From a virus (lineage: Duplodnaviria; Heunggongvirae; Uroviricota; Caudoviricetes): a stretch of 13,222 bases of DNA. The stretch is from positions 1-13,222 of the IMG/VR virus record IMGVR_UViG_2654588181_000002. The stretch is one strand, 5' to 3'. The notes under the pieces were generated by a model, which saw nothing but the letters and a program-made list of their open reading frames with translations, had not been told where the DNA came from and ran no database searches. Shown here in pieces: positions 327-13,222 of the stretch. The translations under genes were made by a program, and so were the position numbers. Within the stretch, counting starts at the first letter, position 1, and the number at the start of each line of letters is the position of its first letter.

Positions 327-443
327 TTTAGAGCTATATTCTAGAGTATATGAGATACTATAAAGTTGAAGGAGCTATCATTAGAAAAACCATATGCTGC
401 TATAATTAGATGTCTCGCTTTTCATCCAATAACGAATTTTCTC

Positions 444-851
444 TTATAGATTGCTCTCTGGTTTTTTCGGCCACTCTGTATTTTTTATATCAACACGCAT
501 CAATAGTGCGCGATATTTTTTCCATGCCAGTAACAGTTTCGTTTCATCATCTGTTGCCATATCTAAATCAACCGCATCCTGAAGCGGTGCTATTACATTC
601 GTTGCCTCTGCTATCAGTGCAGATTTCTTTTCATTATTTATTAAGGCTAATTGTTCTGGTGTTGGAGAAGGACGGTCAACAATGACAGGGTGACCATTCT
701 CACCACAGGTAATCATTTTTGTTACACTCTGCGAATTAATCAGTGTTTTCCACTCTGATTCCGAGATTTCCACTGCATCATCAGGAATATTGGTGCCGTG
801 AAATTCAGTCGAATAAAATCCGTTTGTCGATGCAGAATAAAAATATGACAT
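444..851 (-). CDS. phage tail fibre assembly protein (Tfa family chaperone)
   Basis: C-terminal region ...IAPLQDAVDLDMATDDETKLLLAWKKYRALLMRVDIKNTEWPKKPE is the characteristic Tfa C-terminal domain. Start placed at the ATG at 849-851 (MSYFYSASTNGFY...) rather than ORF-track 947, because the upstream extension overlaps the tail-fibre gene in another frame. The upstream gene stops at 856-858. Confidence 0.8.
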   Translation of the reverse strand: MSYFYSASTNGFYSTEFHGTNIPDDAVEISESEWKTLINSQSVTKMITCGENGHPVIVDRPSPTPEQLALINNEKKSALIAEATNVIAPLQDAVDLDMATDDETKLLLAWKKYRALLMRVDIKNTEWPKKPESNL

Positions 852-855
852 TTCG

Positions 856-1506
856 TTAATATCCCATTGCAATGTAATACGCATCAGCAGATGAACCATA
901 TCCTGAACCGGGCGACACTGTAATATCAAATCCAGTGTTATGGACATTTGTCGCCGATACAGTCGGCTGCCCTGACGCGCCAGTAACGTTCAATGTAACT
1001 GTGACAGCAAGGACTCTTGAGAATGTCATCGGGAACCTCATCCCGTATGTTGAAGATACATTAGGGGAGCCATTCAACTGACCGCACTGTAAAATTAATC
1101 CAGACGGAAATTTTTGCGCAGCAGCCGTTGCGGTATTACTTGACGCGAACAGGCTCATATCAGGTATCTGATTCGCCCCTGTACCTACATTCCTTTTAGC
1201 CGCTTCTCCCAAACCAAGGTTTTCGAGAGCCGTTTGCACAGTGCCATCCGATTTGATATCGCCAAACGGATTCTTGCGGCTTAACAACAGCGCACGAAGC
1301 GCGGTAAGCAGCTGGTCATGCCGCCCCTTCTCCAGGCTGGCACCGGATGCCTCCACCACGCTGCAAAGCTCCTCCTGCAACATGTCAAAGTAGTCATCAT
1401 CCAGATCGGTGGCAGGTGTGCCGGTCTGGGGGTTACCACGGGTAAAACCGTTCTTACCCGCGCCGAACTTATCCTTCTGCGCGGTTTTGGTGTCTATACG
1501 ATGCAT
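856..1506 (-). CDS. phage tail fibre protein (short receptor-binding type, Stf-like)
   Basis: 216 aa. N-terminus [55 protein letters not shown]... and a Gly/Ser/Thr-rich C-terminus resemble short side-tail-fibre proteins of E. coli defective prophages (memory-based). It is immediately followed by a Tfa gene, the canonical stf-tfa arrangement. Confidence 0.6.
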
Positions 1507-1808
1507 GGATTACTCCGGATACCCCCTAGTGAATCTCCTGCACCATCAAGATGAAGGAGATAGATATTACTTGAGTTACCTTTTTCACCTTTCCGGGTGA
1601 CTTTTTTTACCAGCCCGGAATCACAAAGGGCCGCAATATGATTCATCACAGAACGTTTGCTAATCTCGCACTGGTCAGCAATATGCTGGTAGCTGGGCCA
1701 GCACTCACCCTGATCGCTGGCATTATCAGCCAGCTTGATCAGAACCAGTTTTCGCAATGGATTACCCACTCGAATTTTCATCGCTTTAACCATCAGCTCC
1801 ATACTCAT
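1494..1808 (-). CDS. small winged-helix/HTH DNA-binding protein (phage replication-initiator N-terminal-like, possibly truncated)
   Basis: 104 aa. Motif ...[47 protein letters not shown]... looks like the HTH N-terminal domain of phage replisome-organiser proteins. ATGA start/stop overlap with the upstream gene (1805-1808). The 3' end overlaps the tail-fibre start by 13 nt. Confidence 0.55.
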
Positions 1809-2041
1809 GCTGCACCTCCGAGATGCTTCATGTTTTTTCCGGAGCGAAAGGCTATAAGCGGCATACTGACGCGGTAATTACGGCCCAGCGGTTCACAAAT
1901 CACCTTCTGACATTCACGGTCAACCAGGCTGACACGTAGAACATGCCCTGCTGGCGTGGTGTACCACTGCCCAACTGTGGGTGTTGATATTTTTTTACGC
2001 TGAAATAAACGGTAAATGTTGAGGAGCAACGGATTAAGCAT
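1805..2041 (-). CDS. hypothetical small protein (78 aa)
   Basis: ORF whose start overlaps the upstream stop (ATG 2039-2041, upstream TAA 2034-2036) and whose stop overlaps the next start (ATGA at 1805-1808), suggesting translational coupling within one operon. No family recognised. Confidence 0.4.
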   Translation of the reverse strand: MLNPLLLNIYRLFQRKKISTPTVGQWYTTPAGHVLRVSLVDRECQKVICEPLGRNYRVSMPLIAFRSGKNMKHLGGAA

Positions 2042-2870
2042 GACGATGCCCTCCGCTGATATTCAGGAGACGGTGAATATGAAAATTAGCCTTATCCGCC
2101 AGACGAATACGTTCAGCTTGCAAGTTAAGAAGGGTTTCTACCAGAACCTGATGTGCCTGCGGATCCGAAAGAGTTACCTTGCGCAGAGCACGTAGTGCAG
2201 CTGTTACATAACTGAGTTTATGTAAGTCTTCATCATTCAGACGAGTGAGGGCTGGGACAGTAGCCATGATGGCAGCCTCCTTGATCGGTGAAATACTTCC
2301 ACCACCGGAAACGCCAATTTCGCTGGTGGTGAACTGAACGGGGTTGGCGTAACCGGTGATCAAGGAAACCGGCGCATCTTTCGATGCCCCCGCCCAGCCC
2401 ACCATAACTTTGATGTGAGCAAATGCGGACGATAAAAAAGACGCTGGCGCGTCATATATCGCCTTGATCAATTCCAGGACGCCAATCCCGGCACCCGCTT
2501 TATAAGGTGCCTGAACAGTGTAACGTCCCGGAATGGCAGAATCAATGTGCTGGTGGTCCTTCACACTCAACAAAATCACGCCTGAATTTCCACAAAGGGC
2601 TAAAGCACTCATGCGGGTAGTCTTTGCGAAGATAGATAACGCGCTGTGTTTCTGGCTCCCAACGAATAACATGAACATAAAGTCCTCTTCCGTCACGAAA
2701 CCAGCGGTTAAGTTCCTGCACAACTCGCCCCCCACAGTCAGGTAAAGTTCTCTGTGGTTACTTACAGCCAGGAGATTTGGTAATCTGCATTCATGCCGTA
2801 ACAACAGGTGTTCAGCGACGCTGACCACCAGCTGTTGCGACAAACGGTTATTTGCCGTTAAACTGTTCAT
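2034..2870 (-). CDS. hypothetical protein (278 aa) in the lambdoid replication-gene position; function unknown
   Basis: Long ORF with ATGA overlap to the upstream CII-like gene (2867-2870). No Walker A/P-loop, no N-terminal HTH and no other motif I can assign. Confidence 0.6.
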   Translation of the reverse strand: MNSLTANNRLSQQLVVSVAEHLLLRHECRLPNLLAVSNHRELYLTVGGELCRNLTAGFVTEEDFMFMLFVGSQKHSALSIFAKTTRMSALALCGNSGVILLSVKDHQHIDSAIPGRYTVQAPYKAGAGIGVLELIKAIYDAPASFLSSAFAHIKVMVGWAGASKDAPVSLITGYANPVQFTTSEIGVSGGGSISPIKEAAIMATVPALTRLNDEDLHKLSYVTAALRALRKVTLSDPQAHQVLVETLLNLQAERIRLADKANFHIHRLLNISGGHRHA

Positions 2871-3436
2871 GCGTTAGTTTCTCCACAACCAGAAGCAATC
2901 GACGCCACGACGCCCGGAGCTGCACACTCGCGGGCGTCATTACTTTCTGAAATGCAAAAGATTTTGTAGACCAGTGCTGCATGCTCCTGCAGCTTCGAAA
3001 TTGAGAGATACAGCTCGTCGTTAATTGCTGTCTTCTCATGCGGTTCCACTACACCGTCTTCGATTGCTGAACGAATCTGTTTTGAATAACTGCCGATCTG
3101 TTCAATGACTTCCAGCAGACGCTGGTTAATATCGGCGTTGTCCACATCCTCGACGTCAGGAAGAGACACAAAGACGCCATTTGCAGACTGCGCCACAGCG
3201 TCAGCAATGAAGTGAGTTCCACCAGCACGTTGCAAAATCATTGCCCATCCCAGCGGGAAAATCTGATCGCCATCGGCACGAAGGCGGTTAAATAATGCGT
3301 TCTCTGTTACATCCAGCCAGTCAGCTGCTTCAGCGTAACCACCCGGCAACTTTGCGATAGTTTTTCTGACAGCTTTCACGTACCACTCAGGCTGTTTTTC
3401 TACTTTCCAGTGATGCTTACCCACGGTTAGCCTCAT
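2867..3436 (-). CDS. phage CII-like regulatory protein (YmfL/YdaT-like)
   Basis: 189 aa, immediately downstream of the Cro-like gene on the same strand, in the cII position of a lambdoid immunity region. Resembles the e14 YmfL / Rac YdaT group (memory-based). No obvious Shine-Dalgarno upstream of the ATG at 3434-3436. Confidence 0.6.
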   Translation of the reverse strand: MRLTVGKHHWKVEKQPEWYVKAVRKTIAKLPGGYAEAADWLDVTENALFNRLRADGDQIFPLGWAMILQRAGGTHFIADAVAQSANGVFVSLPDVEDVDNADINQRLLEVIEQIGSYSKQIRSAIEDGVVEPHEKTAINDELYLSISKLQEHAALVYKIFCISESNDARECAAPGVVASIASGCGETNA

Positions 3437-3467
3437 CGTTCTGTGGTTAAAAATTGAAAGTGTTCTG

Positions 3468-3668
3468 CTAATCTTTCGGATAGATATCCGGTCTTAAGTC
3501 AGATTTCGTAATTGCACCTGACGTGCATTGCTCAAGTTTTTTAGCCAGCACAAAACTGGCTTTTTTATAGCCATTGAAAACCAGCCGTAAGTAGCCAGGT
3601 GTTGAGCCAACTTTTCCGGCCAACTCGCCCTGCTGTTCTTTGGTTAAAGAGTCCCAATACGCTTTCAT
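3468..3668 (-). CDS. Cro-like HTH regulator (YdaS/CroE-like)
   Basis: 66-aa product MKAYWDSLTKEQQGELAGKVGSTPGYLRLVFNGYKKASFVLAKKLEQCTSGAITKSDLRPDIYPKD, divergent from the CI-like gene. GGAGG lies 10 nt upstream of the chosen ATG (3666-3668). The longer ORF-track version (to 3971) would overlap the repressor gene and is rejected. Confidence 0.7.
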   Translation of the reverse strand: MKAYWDSLTKEQQGELAGKVGSTPGYLRLVFNGYKKASFVLAKKLEQCTSGAITKSDLRPDIYPKD

Positions 3669-3670
3669 AC

Positions 3671-3758
3671 AATATGTACCTCCGGTGTACATATTACATG
3701 ATTGAAATGAACCTTCAAGATACTTGTACCTTAACGGTACAAGAGTTTTAATTTCGTT
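3671..3758. promoter_or_regulatory. divergent immunity-switch control region: two inverted-repeat operators plus candidate pR (minus) and pRM (plus) promoters
   Basis: Operator 1 is AATATGTAC-N7-GTACATATT (3671-3695, perfect 9-bp arms). Operator 2 is CTTGTACC-TTAAC-GGTACAAG (3723-3743, perfect 8-bp arms). Candidate pR on minus strand: -35 TTGAAG (3719..3714), 17-bp spacer, -10 TAATAT (3696..3691), overlapping operator 1. Candidate pRM on plus strand: -35 TTGTAC (3724-3729), 17-bp spacer, -10 TTTAAT (3747-3752), ending about 7 nt before the repressor ATG. Confidence 0.6.
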
Positions 3759-4433
3759 ATGAAAACAATCCATGACATCCGGCGGTCTAACGCCAGAAAA
3801 CTGAGAGATGGTGTTGGCGGGAATTCTTCCTTTGCCACTATGATTGATCGCGAGCCAACCCAGACCAGCAGGTTTATGGGAGATGGTGCTACTAAAAATA
3901 TCGGTGACAGCATGGCACGACACATCGAAAAATGTTTCGACCTGCCTGTCGGATGGCTCGATCAAGAACACCAGACAACGAACATCACAAAAAAACCTGA
4001 TGTTTCAATCACTAATAAACAAATCACATTAGTCCCTGTCATATCATGGGTACAGGCCGGAGCATGGAAAGAAGTTGGATATTCTGAGGTTGATTTGAGC
4101 ACAGCAGAAACGTATCCCTGCCCTGTACCCTGTGGGGAAATGACTTATATCTTGCGGGTGATAGGTGATTCAATGATTGATGAGTACCGCCCGGGAGACA
4201 TGATTTTTGTCGATCCTGAAGTACCTGCCTGCCACGGTGACGACGTTATTGCATTGATGCACGATACAGGTGAAACCACCTTCAAAAGGTTGATAGAAGA
4301 TGGGACACAGCGTTATCTCAAAGCGTTAAACCCAAACTGGCCTGAGCCTTACATTAAGATCAACGGTAATTGCTCTATAATTGGTACAGTGATTTTCTCA
4401 GGAAAACCAAGAAGATACAAAATCAAAGCCTAA
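3759..4433 (+). CDS. CI-like prophage repressor (HTH + LexA-like S24 autopeptidase domain; CohE-like)
   Basis: 224 aa with an N-terminal HTH region and a C-terminal S24-type domain (VIGDSM... and FKRL Ser/Lys dyad context). Divergent from the Cro-like gene, and no Shine-Dalgarno before the ATG, consistent with a leaderless pRM transcript. Confidence 0.9.
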   Translation: MKTIHDIRRSNARKLRDGVGGNSSFATMIDREPTQTSRFMGDGATKNIGDSMARHIEKCFDLPVGWLDQEHQTTNITKKPDVSITNKQITLVPVISWVQAGAWKEVGYSEVDLSTAETYPCPVPCGEMTYILRVIGDSMIDEYRPGDMIFVDPEVPACHGDDVIALMHDTGETTFKRLIEDGTQRYLKALNPNWPEPYIKINGNCSIIGTVIFSGKPRRYKIKA

Positions 4434-4444
4434 TCAATGTTTAT

Positions 4445-4468
4445 GAACCTGCTTCGGCAGGTTTTTTT
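4445..4468 (+). terminator. intrinsic terminator downstream of the repressor gene
   Basis: ACCTGC-TTCG-GCAGGT hairpin (4447-4462, UUCG tetraloop) followed by a run of seven T (4462-4468), 12 nt after the repressor stop. Confidence 0.75.
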
Positions 4469-4472
4469 ATAC

Positions 4473-4505
4473 TTGACAATGTACCTTTGAGATACATAAT
4501 GTACC
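4473..4505 (+). promoter_or_regulatory. candidate early-left promoter (pL-like) with repressor half-sites
   Basis: -35 TTGACA (4473-4478), 16-bp spacer, -10 CATAAT (4495-4500). The ATGTACC motif occurs twice (4480-4486 and 4499-5505 region, second copy at 4499-4505), sharing the GTAC core of the operators at 3671-3743. Confidence 0.6.
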
Positions 4506-4582
4506 CAAGCGAAACAACGAACAGGCAGGACGCCCACGAAGTAGCCGCCTGGGGCATATGAAGTCCAGGATGATTCGTTAGC

Positions 4583-4608
4583 AACAAAAAAGCGCCTACA
4601 GGACGCTT
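4583..4608 (-). terminator. candidate intrinsic terminator on the minus strand, downstream of the 4845-5279 gene
   Basis: Minus strand reads AAGCGTC-CTGTA-GGCGCTT followed by TTTTGTTGC (plus coordinates 4590-4608 for the hairpin, A-run 4586-4591). It lies about 240 nt beyond the minus-strand gene's stop and inside the 5' leader of the plus-strand 68-aa gene. Confidence 0.45.
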
Positions 4609-4666
4609 AGCTCTTTAACAATCTGGTCCCCATCAACAAGTAACTGATAACTTGAGGAGATGTGAA

Positions 4667-4873
4667 ATGCACAAAACAGAACCCAAAATCGTCGCGCCTG
4701 GCTACACAGATGAGGAAATTTATGAGTGGATGACAAAGAAGCTGGCAGCTATAAACCAGCTTCGTGAAGTGCTGTCTTATCGACAGGAAACAATAGACTC
4801 CTTAAAAAAACTGGATCAGGAAATCACGGTTTTATCACAGGATGTTACTTTAGATATTGTGCAGACAAATTAG
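4667..4873 (+). CDS. hypothetical small acidic, predicted coiled-coil protein (68 aa), first gene after pL
   Basis: ATG at 4667 preceded by GAGGAG (4655-4660); the ORF-track 4652 start would be a TTG. Product MHKTEPKIVAPGYTDEEIYEWMTKKLAAINQLREVLSYRQETIDSLKKLDQEITVLSQDVTLDIVQTN. Not N-like (not Arg-rich). The 3' end overlaps the convergent minus-strand gene by 29 nt. Confidence 0.5.
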   Translation: MHKTEPKIVAPGYTDEEIYEWMTKKLAAINQLREVLSYRQETIDSLKKLDQEITVLSQDVTLDIVQTN

Positions 4874-5279
4874 GATCCCATTCATTTTCGTCAAAATCAT
4901 CAAAGTGATGAATTTGTGATCTCCAGTCTCGATAATCTAAAAATTTCTGGGCGGTTACGCTTATTTTATCAAGTGTGAGTTCATCCTGAATTGAAAGAAG
5001 AAGTTCATCAAATTTCATCTCATTAATCTGTTTTGGCATCCAGTGATGCTTCATCAGAATAAGGTGAACCAGAGCCTTTTTCCCATTCAACTGATTATAG
5101 GGAGTGCCGAATTTCTTCCGGTGCTCATGTAAGACAAGGTCCAAAAGAGTAAGTAATGTTGCCCTTGATTCAACTTTGCTTATTTCGACTGATGACACTA
5201 CCCCACTGATTTCAATGCCCCGATACTTTCCAACATTTTCACAGTGGGATTTGTACAGCGTATAGATATTACCGGACAT
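4845..5279 (-). CDS. hypothetical protein (144 aa), AT-rich antisense 'moron' gene; function unknown
   Basis: Clean 144-codon ORF opposite to all neighbouring early-left genes, visibly more AT-rich than its flanks, with an AGGA-like RBS upstream of the ATG (5277-5279) and its own candidate terminator. No family recognised. Confidence 0.6.
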   Translation of the reverse strand: MSGNIYTLYKSHCENVGKYRGIEISGVVSSVEISKVESRATLLTLLDLVLHEHRKKFGTPYNQLNGKKALVHLILMKHHWMPKQINEMKFDELLLSIQDELTLDKISVTAQKFLDYRDWRSQIHHFDDFDENEWDPNLSAQYLK

Positions 5280-5294
5280 TTCTTTTCCTTTTGC

Positions 5295-5343
5295 GTTGTT
5301 GGGGATAACCAGATTAACCGAATCCTTGTTGTTGGGGAATAAC
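5295..5343. repeat. two direct copies of GTTGTTGGGGA(A)TAAC, 33 bp apart, just upstream of the 4845-5279 gene
   Basis: 5295-5309 GTTGTTGGGGATAAC and 5328-5343 GTTGTTGGGGAATAAC. Position fits a regulator binding site or promoter element for the minus-strand gene. Confidence 0.4.
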
Positions 5344-5605
5344 TAGGTCCACCTCGCCTGATGTGGCTAAAAGCAGGCACATAACAGCTAAGTATTTTCA
5401 ACCAGAGAGAATCCTTAGCGTTGTGGTGAATGCGGCTCAGCGCACGCGGGTTAAGGTTGAGGCTGACAGTCGACCTTCTGTGGATACCCACCCGCCTGGT
5501 GTGCAACCTTCGCCAGGCACCGGGAGGCACCCGGCACCACAACTTTATGCTGTGTGTAGTCTTGGCGGTACCAGCTTGTACCCTTGCTTCCGGCTGGTAC
5601 CGTCC

Positions 5606-5704
5606 TTTTTACAAAACAGAGAAGAGCATCACCGGACGACGGGCTCATAACCCAATCCATCCGGGCGGCAGTCACCGCAGGTGTTCTTCTCTGTTTTGTG
5701 GAGA
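5606..5704. other. long imperfect palindrome / stem-loop within a GC-rich non-coding block
   Basis: Perfect 14-bp inverted repeat ACAAAACAGAGAAG (5611-5624) / CTTCTCTGTTTTGT (5686-5699), extendable with wobbles to about 20 bp, enclosing a ~49-nt GC-rich loop. No flanking U-run on either strand, so not a classical terminator. Confidence 0.4.
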
Positions 5705-5747
5705 AACTAACCGACCTTGCAGGGTCGATATGATGAGGAGCAGCAAA

Positions 5748-6110
5748 ATGGCTAGCGAACGCAGTACTGATGTGCAGGCATTTATCGGGGAGCTGGACGG
5801 CGGCGTATTTGAAACCAAAATCGGCGCAGTTCTCAGTGAAGTCGCTTCCGGTGTGATGAACACGAAAACCAAAGGTAAGGTCTCGCTCAACCTAGAAATC
5901 GAACCGTTTGATGAGAACCGAGTGAAAATCAAACACAAACTCTCATATGTTCGCCCGACTAACCGCGGGAAAATTTCCGAAGAAGACACCACCGAAACGC
6001 CGATGTATGTCAATCGCGGTGGTCGCCTGACTATTCTGCAGGAAGACCAGGGACAGTTGCTGACTCTTGCCGGTGAACCTGACGGAAAACTCCGCGCAGC
6101 AGGTCGTTAA
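5748..6110 (+). CDS. YfdP-like prophage protein (120 aa), function unknown
   Basis: Start at ATG 5748 (MASERSTDVQAFIGELDGG...) preceded by GAGGAG (5735-5740). The ORF-track extension back to 5430 translates to Arg/Cys/His-rich sequence typical of GC-rich non-coding DNA and is rejected. First gene of a block recalled as the CPS-53 yfdPQRST-like cluster. Confidence 0.65.
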   Translation: MASERSTDVQAFIGELDGGVFETKIGAVLSEVASGVMNTKTKGKVSLNLEIEPFDENRVKIKHKLSYVRPTNRGKISEEDTTETPMYVNRGGRLTILQEDQGQLLTLAGEPDGKLRAAGR

Positions 6111-6175
6111 TATCGTTTTTAATTAACTGATTATTTATCTCATCACTGAATATCTTTATATAGTGAGGACTTATT

Positions 6176-7000
6176 ATGTCTCAGAACTTAGACGCAACCG
6201 CAATTAATCAAATCCATGCCCTTATTTCTGCTCAGGGTGTTAATGAAATTATCAGTAAGATTGGTGCCGATGCTGTGGCATTGCCTGAGAATTTCCGCAT
6301 TCATGATCTGGAAAAATTTAATTTAAATCGCTTCCGTTTCCGTGGTGCGCTTTCCACTGCCAGCATCGATGATTTTACCCGTTATTCTAAAGATCTTGCA
6401 GATGAAGGCACCCGCTGCTTTATCGATGCTGATAATATGCGTGCCGTCAGTGTGCTTAACCTAGGTACTATTGATGAACCAGGTCACGCAGATAACACCG
6501 CCACACTCAAACTGAAAAAGACAGCACCGTTCTCTGCTCTGTTGTCTGTTAACGGCGAGCGTAACTCCCAGAAGTCACTAGCAGAATGGATTGAAGACTG
6601 GGCCGACTATCTTGTGGGCTTTGATGCTAATGGTGACGCTATTCAGGCAACAAAAGCGGCTGCGGCTGTCCGTAAAATCACGATTGAAGCAAACCAGACC
6701 GCTGATTTTGAAGATAATGACTTCAGCGGCAAACGCTCCCTGATGGAGTCTGTCGAAGCGAAGACCAAAGACATTATGCCAGTGGCATTTGAATTTAAAT
6801 GCGTTCCGTTTGAAGGTCTGAAAGAACGTCCGTTTAAATTACGCCTCAGTATTATCACTGGCGATCGTCCTGTACTGGTTCTGCGCATTATTCAGCTGGA
6901 GGCGGTGCAGGAAGAAATGGCTAACGAATTTCGTGATCTGCTTGTTGAGAAATTCAAGGACAGCAAAGTAGAAACCTTTATTGGTACTTTCACCGCCTGA
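6176..7000 (+). CDS. YfdQ-like prophage protein (DUF2303-type), 274 aa
   Basis: ATG 6176 with GAGGA (6165-6169) upstream. Product [30 protein letters not shown]... recalled as YfdQ-family. Confidence 0.75.
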
Positions 7001-7012
7001 TTTCATTACTGC

Positions 7013-7034
7013 AAATGCCCCTGCGGGGGCATTT
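7013..7034 (+). other. perfect 9-bp hairpin between the yfdQ-like and yfdR-like genes
   Basis: AAATGCCCC-TGCG-GGGGCATTT (stem 7013-7021 / 7026-7034). The only T residues are inside the stem, so it is a weak terminator at best; possibly an mRNA stability or processing element. Confidence 0.35.
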
Positions 7035-7127
7035 ATGGAAACGTAATTTACTCAATAATCGCCGGATGGTGAGGGATTCTTTTTACCAGAATTCAGCGCG
7101 GTGCAGCGCATATACGTGGAGAACAAA

Positions 7128-7664
7128 ATGTCATTTATTAAAACTTTTTCCGGGAAGCATTTTTATTATGACAGGATAAATAAAGACGACATCGATATTA
7201 ACGATATCGCGGTTTCCCTTTCAAATATCTGTCGCTTTGCCGGTCATCTTTCGCACTTCTACAGCGTCGCCCAACATGCGGTTCTTTGCAGCCAGCTGGT
7301 GCCGCAGGAATTTGCTTTTGAAGCGTTAATGCATGATGCAACAGAAGCGTATTGCCAGGACATTCCCGCACCACTGAAACGCCTTCTTCCTGACTATAAA
7401 CAAATGGAAGAAAAAATAGACGCCGTAATCCGTGAGAAATACGGGTTACCCCCAGTTATGAGTACGCCCGTGAAATATGCCGATCTCATCATGCTGGCAA
7501 CCGAACGCCGCGATCTCGGGCTTGATGATGGCTCTTTCTGGCCTGTACTGGAAGGTATCCCGGCAACAGAGATGTTCAACGTGATTCCACTGGCACCGGG
7601 CCATGCCTACGGGATGTTTATGGAACGCTTTAACGAGTTATCGGAGTTACGCAAATGCGCATGA
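7128..7664 (+). CDS. HD-domain phosphohydrolase (YfdR-like)
   Basis: 178 aa. H...HD metal-binding signature (...AGHLSHFYSVAQHAV... and ...ALMHDATEAY...). ATG 7128 preceded by GGAG (7117-7120); the ORF-track GTG at 7101 is rejected. Stop overlaps the next gene's start. Confidence 0.85.
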   Translation: MSFIKTFSGKHFYYDRINKDDIDINDIAVSLSNICRFAGHLSHFYSVAQHAVLCSQLVPQEFAFEALMHDATEAYCQDIPAPLKRLLPDYKQMEEKIDAVIREKYGLPPVMSTPVKYADLIMLATERRDLGLDDGSFWPVLEGIPATEMFNVIPLAPGHAYGMFMERFNELSELRKCA

Positions 7665-8017
7665 ATGTTTTCGAAATGGAAGGGTTTCTTCGTGGGAGAT
7701 GTGTACCGCGAGATCTGAAAGTAAATGAAACAGATGCTGAATACCTGGTGCGTAAATTCGATGCGCTTGAAGCTAAATGTGCAGCACAGGAAAACAAAGT
7801 AATACCAGTGTCAACTGAACTGCCACCAGCAAATGAAAGTGTTTTGTTATTCGATGCTAACGGAGAAGGCTGGCTAATTGGCTGGCGTTCTCTCTGGTAC
7901 ACCTGGGGACAAAAAGAAACCGGAGAATGGCAGTGGACATTTCAGGTCGGGGACCTTGAAAACGTCAATATCACTCACTGGGCAGTAATGCCAAAAGCAC
8001 CGGAGGCTGGAGCATAA
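7655..8017 (+). CDS. DUF551-like phage protein (YfdS-like)
   Basis: 120 aa, Trp-rich C-terminal half (...GWLIGWRSLWYTWGQKETGEWQW...) typical of DUF551. Start overlaps the previous stop (7655-7664); the stop overlaps the next start (8017). Confidence 0.7.
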   Translation: MRMNVFEMEGFLRGRCVPRDLKVNETDAEYLVRKFDALEAKCAAQENKVIPVSTELPPANESVLLFDANGEGWLIGWRSLWYTWGQKETGEWQWTFQVGDLENVNITHWAVMPKAPEAGA

Positions 8018-8322
8018 TGACCACTTTTACCGACAAAGAACTGATTAAAGAAATTAAAGAGCGTATCAGCAGCCTTGACGTGCGAGACGATATTGAGCGC
8101 CGTGCTTATGAAATCGCACTCCTATATCTGGAAGTAGAACCAGATGAACGCGAAGCTTATGAATTATTCATGGAAAAGCGTTTCGGTGACTTAGTAGATC
8201 GTCGGAGAGCAAAAAACGGCAATAACGAATACATGGCATGGGATATGACTCTCGGTTGGATCGTCTGGCAGCAACGAGCTGGTATCCATTTTTCAACAAT
8301 GTCACAGCAAGAGGTGAAATAA
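8017..8322 (+). CDS. hypothetical phage protein (YfdT-like), 101 aa
   Basis: Translationally coupled at both ends (ATG within ATAATG at 8017; TAATG at 8320-8324). Assigned as the last gene of the yfdQRST-like cluster by position and size only. Confidence 0.55.
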   Translation: MTTFTDKELIKEIKERISSLDVRDDIERRAYEIALLYLEVEPDEREAYELFMEKRFGDLVDRRRAKNGNNEYMAWDMTLGWIVWQQRAGIHFSTMSQQEVK

Positions 8323-8672
8323 TGGAGCCATACAGCCTCACACTCGATGAGGCCTGTCATTTTCTCAAGATATCCAGACCGACTGCCATTAACTGGATAC
8401 GCACAGGGCGTCTTCAGGCAACACGCAAAGATCCCACTAAGAATAAATCTCCTTACCTCACAACACGACAAGCCTGCATTGCGGCTCTTCAGTCTCCGCT
8501 GCATACTGTCCAGGTGAGCGCGGGTGATGGCATAACAGAGGAAAGAAAATGTCACTCTTCCGCAGAGGTGAAATATGGTACGCCAGTTTCACATTGCCGA
8601 ACGGTAAAAGATTTAAACAGTCTCTTGGAACAAAGGACAAAAGGCAGGCGACAGAACTCCATGACAAGCTAA
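8322..8672 (+). CDS. AlpA/Xis-type excisionase / DNA-binding regulator
   Basis: N-terminus [38 protein letters not shown]... is the AlpA-family HTH. ATG 8322 with GAGG (8311-8314) upstream. The ORF runs 116 codons and its last 124 nt overlap the integrase start in another frame, so the true C-terminus is uncertain. Confidence 0.7.
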
Positions 8673-9712
8673 AGGCTGAAGCATGGCGGGTCAGCAAACT
8701 TGGTGAAATACCTGATATAACGTTCGAGGAAGCGTGTGTCAGGTGGCTTGAAGAGAAAGCACATAAAAAATCACTGGACGATGACAAAAGCCGGATCGGA
8801 TTCTGGCTTCAACATTTCGCAGGAATGCAACTAAGAGACATTACTGAATCAAAAATTTATTCAGCAATGCAGAAAATGACGAACCGGCGTCATGAGGAAA
8901 ACTGGAAACTCAGGGCAGAAGCATGCAGAAAAAAAGGGAAACCTGTTCCAGAATACACGCCAAAACCAGCGTCCGTTGCAACGAAGGCTACGCATCTTTC
9001 ATTTATAAAGGCCCTACTAAGAGCCGCAGAGCGTGAATGGAAAATGCTGGATAAGGCACCAATTATTAAAGTGCCTCAACCAAAGAATAAACGGATCCGC
9101 TGGCTGGAGCCCCATGAAGCACAAAGGCTGATTGATGAATGTCCGGAGCCATTAAAGTCTGTTGTTGAATTTGCACTGGCAACAGGCTTAAGACGCTCGA
9201 ACATCATCAACCTTGAATGGCAACAAATAGATATGCAGCGCCGGGTGGCATGGATAAACCCGGAAGAGAGTAAATCAAACCGCGCAATTGGCGTTGCGCT
9301 GAATGATACTGCATGTCGCGTATTGAAAAAACAAATCGGGAATCATCACCGTTGGGTATTTGTGTACAAGGAAAGCTGTACCAAACCAGACGGAACGAAA
9401 GCGCCAACAGTAAGGAAGATGCGGTATGACGCAAACACAGCCTGGAAAGCGGCGCTGAGACGGGCTGGTATTGATGATTTCAGATTTCACGACTTGAGAC
9501 ACACCTGGGCAAGTTGGCTGGTTCAAGCCGGAGTCCCGTTGTCAGTGTTACAGGAAATGGGAGGCTGGGAGTCTATCGAAATGGTTCGTCGATATGCTCA
9601 CCTTGCACCTAATCACCTTACCGAACACGCACGGCAAATAGACTCGATCCTGAACCCATCGGTCCCAAATTTGTCCCAGTCAAAAAATAAGGAAGGTACT
9701 AATGATGTGTAA
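8549..9712 (+). CDS. tyrosine recombinase, phage integrase (e14 IntE-like)
   Basis: 387 aa. N-terminus [34 protein letters not shown] and C-terminal catalytic region ...[42 protein letters not shown] (R..H..R..Y). Stops 14 nt before the 3' end of the tRNA. Confidence 0.95.
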
Positions 9713-9725
9713 CTTATTGATTTTA

Positions 9726-9801
9726 ATGGTGCCGATAATAGGAGTCGAACCTACGACCTTCGCATTACGAATGCGCTGCTCTACCAACTGAGCTATATCG
9801 G
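9726..9801 (-). tRNA. thrW: tRNA-Thr (anticodon CGU)
   Basis: Minus strand reads GCCGATATAGCTCAGTTGGTAGAGCAGCGCATTCGTAATGCGAAGGTCGTAGGTTCGACTCCTATTATCGGCACCA: 7-bp acceptor stem, anticodon loop UUCGUAA, T-loop GGTTCGA, encoded CCA. Sits between proA and the integrase, as expected for a thrW-integrated island. Confidence 0.97.
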
Positions 9802-9854
9802 CCCTGAAAGGACATGTTCACGAACGTGAATCACGGTGGACAAGGTTAAAACTA

Positions 9855-12572: not shown

Positions 12573-12627
12573 ATGAAAAAGAGCACTCTGGCATTAGTGG
12601 TGATGGGCATTGTGGCATCTGCATCTG
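12573..12627 (+). pseudogene. phoE: phoE 5' fragment (signal-peptide codons 1-18), interrupted by IS1
   Basis: ATG 12573 encodes MKKSTLALVVMGIVASAS, the PhoE porin signal peptide, then runs directly into the IS1 left end at 12628. Divergent from proB as in E. coli. Confidence 0.85.
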
Positions 12628-12682
12628 GGTGATGCTGCCAACTTACTGATTTAGTGTATGATGGTGTTTTTGAGGTGCTCCA

Positions 12683-12958
12683 GTGGCTTCTGTTTCTATC
12701 AGCTGTCCCTCCTGTTCAGCTACTGACGGGGTGGTGCGTAACGGCAAAAGCACCGCCGGACATCAGCGCTATCTCTGCTCTCACTGCCGTAAAACATGGC
12801 AACTGCAGTTCACTTACACCGCTTCTCAACCCGGTACGCACCAGAAAATCATTGATATGGCCATGAATGGCGTTGGATGCCGGGCAACCGCACGCATTAT
12901 GGGCGTTAGCCTCAACACGATTTTACGCCACTTAAAAAACTCAGGCCGCAGTCGGTAA
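12683..12958 (+). CDS. insA: IS1 InsA (transposition inhibitor / N-terminal part of the InsAB' transposase)
   Basis: 91-aa product [91 protein letters not shown] with a zinc-finger-like CxxC...CxxC N-terminus. Confidence 0.95.
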
Positions 12959-13222
12959 CCTCGCGCATACAGCCGGGCAGTGACGTCATCGTCTGCGCGG
13001 AAATGGACGAACAGTGGGGATACGTCGGGGCTAAATCGCGCCAGCGCTGGCTGTTTTACGCGTATGACAGGCTCCGGAAGACGGTTGTTGCGCACGTATT
13101 CGGTGAACGCACTATGGCGACGCTGGGGCGTCTTATGAGCCTGCTGTCACCCTTTGACGTGGTGATATGGATGACGGATGGCTGGCCGCTGTATGAATCC
13201 CGCCTGAAGGGAAAGCTGCACG
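12934..13222 (+). CDS. insB: IS1 insB reading frame (partial; expressed as InsAB' by -1 frameshift at the A6C slip site)
   Basis: A6C motif TTAAAAAAC at 12932-12940. The -1 frame after it reads [96 protein letters not shown] to the window end. In this copy the insB frame has a TAG at 12907-12909, upstream of the slip site. Confidence 0.8.

Follow-up and report, generated by a model that had tools for sequence, protein, structure and literature searches.

Introduction

The described elements closest to the one analysed here are IS1SD (iso-IS1d), which is the iso-IS1 of Shigella dysenteriae, IS1B, and the IS1A and IS1R types, which are the K-12 and R100 elements that have been studied by experiment. 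In IS1, insA has been placed at nt 56-331, the same coordinates that it has in the copy described here, insB is not translated separately, and a frameshift at the A6C heptamer is needed to produce InsAB' (PMC12428005). Here we describe an IS1 copy that carries a TAG stop codon in the insB (-1) frame, upstream of this heptamer. We consider it very likely that this is an IS1SD-type element inserted in the signal-peptide region of phoE, with a stop that ribosomes would not read and belonging to a lineage that would be both intact and mobile.

Results

An IS1 copy inserted in phoE

The window, that is, the whole stretch of DNA analysed, is the entire 13,222-bp draft contig FNIS01000058.1 of assembly GCA_900103855.1. 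Both contig ends lie inside insertion sequences, the 3' end of an IS2 at 1-327 and the 5' part of an IS1 at 12628-13222, and positions in the IS1 are given as the window coordinate minus 12627. The features of this end of the window are the following:

12573..12627, + strand: 5' end of phoE, 55 nt covering signal-peptide codons 1-18 and 1 nt more, up to the IS1 insertion, MKKSTLALVVMGIVASAS
12628..13222, + strand: left part of IS1, the first 595 bp of the 768-bp element, from the left inverted repeat to the contig end
12683..12958, + strand: insA, GTG start, 91 aa, IS nt 56-331 (from translation and an exact named InsA match)
12877..12909, + strand: vestige of the classical 167-aa insB start, ATG and 10 codons, then TAG, in the -1 frame
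12889, + strand: C for the T of IS1SD-type copies, IS nt 262, synonymous in insA (ACC/ACT, Thr), the state of IS1B
12907..12909, + strand: TAG in the -1 frame, IS nt 280-282 (direct reading)
12928, + strand: C for the T of IS1SD-type copies, IS nt 301, synonymous in insA (CGC/CGT, Arg), the state of IS1B
12934..12940, + strand: A6C slippery heptamer AAAAAAC, intact, IS nt 307-313 (direct reading)
12937..13221, + strand: -1 (B') frame as it would be decoded after the slip, N-terminal part of the DDE domain (conceptual InsAB'; PF03400)

The left end of the IS1 at 12628 reads GGTGATGCTGCC..., as in all aligned copies, and contains the left terminal inverted repeat, which begins GGTGATGCTGCCAACTTACTGAT; from 12628 onward it is identical to the aligned left ends of IS1SD, IS1B and IS1A. 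InsA showed the domains of a zinc ribbon and helix-turn-helix repressor (PF03811, 74.3 bits; PF12759, 94.4 bits), and the -1 frame is open from 12910 up to the contig end. All the IS1 family features that can be read in the 595 bp, namely the left repeat, the zinc ribbon and helix-turn-helix of insA, and A6C with its -1 frame, are present, and on its sequence the element at 12628-13222 can be assigned to the IS1 family. A search for the frameshift element gave no Rfam match in the IS1 region.

Over the 228 bp upstream of the IS1, the window matches annotated phoE of many E. coli with 100% identity, up to the IS1 junction and no further. phoE, which encodes a phosphoporin, is knocked out by the IS1 after nt 55 of its ORF, in signal-peptide codon 19. 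This phoE::IS1 junction is absent from all 5,426 complete E. coli genomes.

Most of the remaining window belongs to a degraded lambdoid prophage (330-9802), located at tRNA-Thr(CGU) (9727-9802) beside proA and with its integrase at 8549-9712. A deletion in this prophage (856-1808, - strand) has placed the N-terminus of a replication-type HTH_36 gene, a 104-aa ORF at 1494-1808, in fusion next to a tail-fibre gene of 216 aa (856-1506, - strand), and the 104-aa deletion-derived product was found in just three contigs of the whole gene index. Additionally, a related Logan contig has two genes at the place of the window's IS2, one of 506 aa and one for a GtrB-like glycosyltransferase (PF00535, 306 aa), which hints that the prophage is the remnant of an O-antigen-modifying phage.

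The stop codon and Gly76Ser are one substitution

Direct reading confirmed the stop codon that the original prediction had placed at 12907-12909, nine codons upstream of the A6C slip site. The distance from 12682 to 12907 is 225, or 75 x 3, which puts the TAG in the -1 frame relative to insA. Base 12908 (IS nt 281, G281A) also opens InsA codon 76, which is AGC (Ser) and not GGC (Gly), so the TAG and InsA Gly76Ser are a single shared SNP; the window InsA reads ...GVSLNTIL..., whereas GVGLNTIL is the form found in the most frequent InsA of the protein collection, in agreement with the change that the original prediction had described. The TGG (Trp) given there for the canonical element was also borne out, since TGG and Gly76 are found in all eight non-SD isoforms compared, which came from complete E. 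coli genomes and comprise IS1B, two IS1A, four unnamed types and IS1F (90-99% identical). In the -1 frame, these other isoforms read MPGN..HYGRWPQH through the position of the TAG.

The window element groups with iso-IS1d at the protein level

The window InsA is an exact 91-aa match to the "Insertion element iso-IS1d protein InsA" of the protein collection. At the DNA level, the closest matches among the 5,426 complete E. coli genomes and the PLSDB plasmids were 99.7% identical, with 2 mismatches in 595 nt; they have the same TAG and carry the NCBI label "IS1-like element IS1SD family transposase", with a programmed frameshift. Furthermore, Ser76, which entails the TAG, was present in 11 of 11 IS1SD-type copies and in none of the eight other isoforms; in this comparison IS1SD stands for the copies that NCBI labels as IS1SD family (99.0-99.7%), not for the ISfinder reference entry.

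The likeness to IS1SD extends to the position of the TAG at IS nt 280-282, to 91 of 91 residues of InsA, to 180 of 180 residues of the conceptual InsAB' and to 593 of 595 nt in the closest copies. The only differences are the T's of IS1SD at IS nt 262 and 301, where the window has C, both of them synonymous. IS1B is identical to the window at 591 of 595 nt and shares C at nt 262 and 301, but it has TGG (Gly76), C265, C298 and T304, and residue 81 of its InsA is Phe, against Leu in the window. The IS1A and IS1R types have the same organisation and slip site, are 98.5-99.2% identical overall, and the window is identical to two IS1A copies over IS nt 305-392; they differ in TGG (Gly76), in Ser130 of InsAB' and at nt 262, 265, 281, 301, 444 and, in some copies, others. 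Taken as a sequence assignment, the window IS1 is best placed at the protein level in the iso-IS1d / IS1SD group, with two IS1B-like synonymous bases in addition. The original prediction had offered an exact known isoform free of unusual changes as the finding that would speak against a variant; at the protein level the element is essentially such an isoform, InsA being that of iso-IS1d, whereas its DNA keeps the two synonymous differences. The TAG variant is thus real but long known, and the copy is neither new nor damaged.

Spread and mobility of the TAG type

The TAG type accounted for about 390 of about 74,000 IS1 places (about 0.5%) and was found in 223 of the 5,426 complete E. coli genomes, with a median of one copy per genome having any. 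About 70% of these E. coli places lie on plasmids. In PLSDB, the TAG type occurred on 245 plasmids, 44 of them from Shigella, including S. dysenteriae and S. boydii, and the others from Escherichia, Salmonella, Klebsiella and other hosts. The rarity of the TAG type in E. coli is compatible with a somewhat lower activity there.

Ten full-length copies encoding the window-type InsA were taken from public assemblies. All ten have the TAG, and six, at six different sites, are surrounded by direct target duplications of 8-9 bp, three of these being located in a single 4.68-Mb chromosome (CP026866.1) and identical or 1 nt apart. A named lineage, annotated as intact and inserted at many sites, carries the SNP as a fixed change. 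The near-identical copies at different sites of CP026866.1 bear the mark of recent spread and, to judge from the target duplications, the TAG-type lineage has moved. It is conceivable that TAG-type copies move with transposase supplied in trans by co-resident TGG-type elements.

One TAG-type copy of CP026866.1 loses register with its sisters at an indel near IS nt 347, and gene calling gives it a -1-frame ORF of 118 aa where the usual length is 125. This copy has probably decayed, whereas the others look active.

Why the stop would not affect the transposase

To obtain the conceptual InsAB', frame 0 was translated up to A6C, followed by one base back and then by the -1 frame. The product of the window has 180 aa up to the end of the sequence and is identical to that of two IS1SD-type copies annotated by NCBI as intact; it differs from IS1A only in G76S and S130R and from IS1B only in G76S and F81L. 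It matched NF033558 (transpos_IS1) with 198.7 bits, the cut-off being 100, and all three IS1 Pfam domains, PF03400 with 149.7 bits over residues 102-180. These matches agree with the earlier expectation that a stop upstream of the slip site should spare the transposase.

In the mechanism that we propose, InsAB' would be made only by ribosomes that have begun at the insA start and then, on A6C, shift by -1. No ribosome would then decode the -1 frame before nt 307, and a stop at nt 280-282 would be invisible to translation: the TAG would be harmless because ribosomes would change to the -1 frame downstream of it, at nt 307-313 and nowhere else. The 'insB' ATG at nt 250 would be an annotation relic and not a start in use. 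Stops in the -1 frame at IS nt 25, 97, 112, 163 and 226 are already found in every isoform compared, and the effect of the TAG is that the open -1 frame starts at nt 283 and not at nt 229, still 24 nt upstream of the slip site. In frame 0, which is the one that ribosomes use at this place, G281A gives Gly76Ser, in the helix-turn-helix domain PF12759, and in the -1 frame it turns TGG into TAG. Gly76Ser, inside that domain, is the sole change visible to the cell, and by our own reading of the motif residue 76 is the start of the recognition helix. The substitution appears to be functionally tolerated, and the window copy itself may well be active.

An opposite reading would be that the TAG truncates InsB and that this IS1 is a decaying, non-autonomous relic. 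The classical 167-aa insB ORF, with its ATG at 12877, is indeed cut after 10 codons, and gene callers give TAG-type copies just a 125-aa ORF, MDEQ.... However, the stop lies upstream of the slip site and leaves InsAB' unaffected, the lineage is annotated as intact, near-identical target-duplicated copies are located at several sites of one genome, and a separate translation of insB is denied in the literature (PMC12428005), all of which make a dead copy extremely improbable. That the element would be an isoform and not a dead copy had been proposed from the outset, and both the exact iso-IS1d InsA and the target duplications of sister copies at several independent sites point in the same direction.

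We also considered that a little free, modulatory InsB could be made from the ATG at nt 250, in which case the TAG type would be a natural knock-out with an altered control of transposition. In favour of this idea, isoforms as little as 90% identical still have the nt-250 ATG and a -1 frame that is open from nt 229, but chance alone would leave 26 codons free of stops in about 29% of cases ((61/64)^26), and this stretch overlaps constrained insA codons. Given, in addition, that no independent InsB has been reported (PMC12428005) and that the TAG type proliferates, we regard a regulatory variant of this kind as most improbable, and a stop that is not read by ribosomes remains our preferred reading.

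The haplotype at the contig end

The two C's set the window apart from its closest relatives, as all ten sister TAG-type copies have T at both IS nt 262 and 301. IS1B and IS1SD differ within nt 1-595 at only six sites (262, 265, 281, 298, 301 and 304), all within 43 bp (window 12889-12931, IS nt 262-304), and at these the window reads B, SD, SD, SD, B, SD. An exact copy of the window IS1 was absent from the 5,426 complete E. coli genomes and from the PLSDB plasmids, where the best matches had 2 mismatches. Similarly, the window's exact 64-mer, or a 47-mer within it, was absent from these genomes, from the PLSDB plasmids and from the JGI metagenomes. A degenerate pattern allowing either state of the stop gave no match in GTDB representative genomes, and a 38-mer around the TAG gave 0 matches in GTDB species-representative genomes. 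Gene conversion between IS1B and IS1SD is an unlikely source of the two C's, since two patches shorter than 6 nt would be needed.

The contig stops at IS nt 595, two bases before a block (597-621) where IS1 types differ, which suggests that the assembler broke where several IS1 types of the source genome diverge; the source genome probably holds several of them. It is conceivable that this exact haplotype, like its junction with phoE, exists only as a consensus made during assembly. If reads of an IS1B-type and an IS1SD-type copy had been mixed, the copy in phoE might lack this exact combination of bases and possibly the TAG as well. The position of the break, the presence of IS elements at both ends of a contig that is the whole of the window, the alternation of B and SD states, which conversion could explain only with two such short patches, and the absence of the exact haplotype from the genome, plasmid and metagenome collections searched are all in line with a mixed assembly. 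On the other hand, the six sites span no more than 43 bp, and only haplotypes already present in the reads can come out of a de Bruijn assembler when k is above 43. The pattern is accounted for just as well by two separate T-to-C transitions, or by an intermediate between IS1B and IS1SD in the ancestry of the element; moreover, the TAG lineage is itself real in finished genomes regardless. On balance we consider an assembly artefact unlikely, though much less so than the readings weighed above. Two independent transitions, an IS1B-IS1SD intermediate and an assembly consensus of mixed reads are all conceivable origins of the two C's, whereas the existence and intactness of the TAG-type IS1 are independent of how the window was assembled.

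A combined reading was also weighed, in which the TAG would knock out a separately initiated InsB, or frameshifts occurring before nt 280, and C262 and C301 would mark a real, unrecorded intermediate between IS1B and IS1SD. We hold this to be very improbable; if it were true, the InsB knock-out would give the iso-IS1d lineage another balance between inhibitor and transposase than that of canonical IS1.

Discussion

For annotation pipelines and insertion sequence scanners, our analysis means that IS1SD-type copies should not be flagged as pseudogenes on account of the TAG. In addition, where the contigs of a draft assembly end in insertion sequences, the terminal sequence should be treated as possibly composite.

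For the IS1 family, the finding serves as a reminder that the 167-aa InsB ORF of older records is not a translated unit, and its biological weight is otherwise very small. IS1 copies with a stop inside the InsB ORF have been propagated repeatedly in nature, which gives independent support to the frameshift model of InsAB' synthesis.
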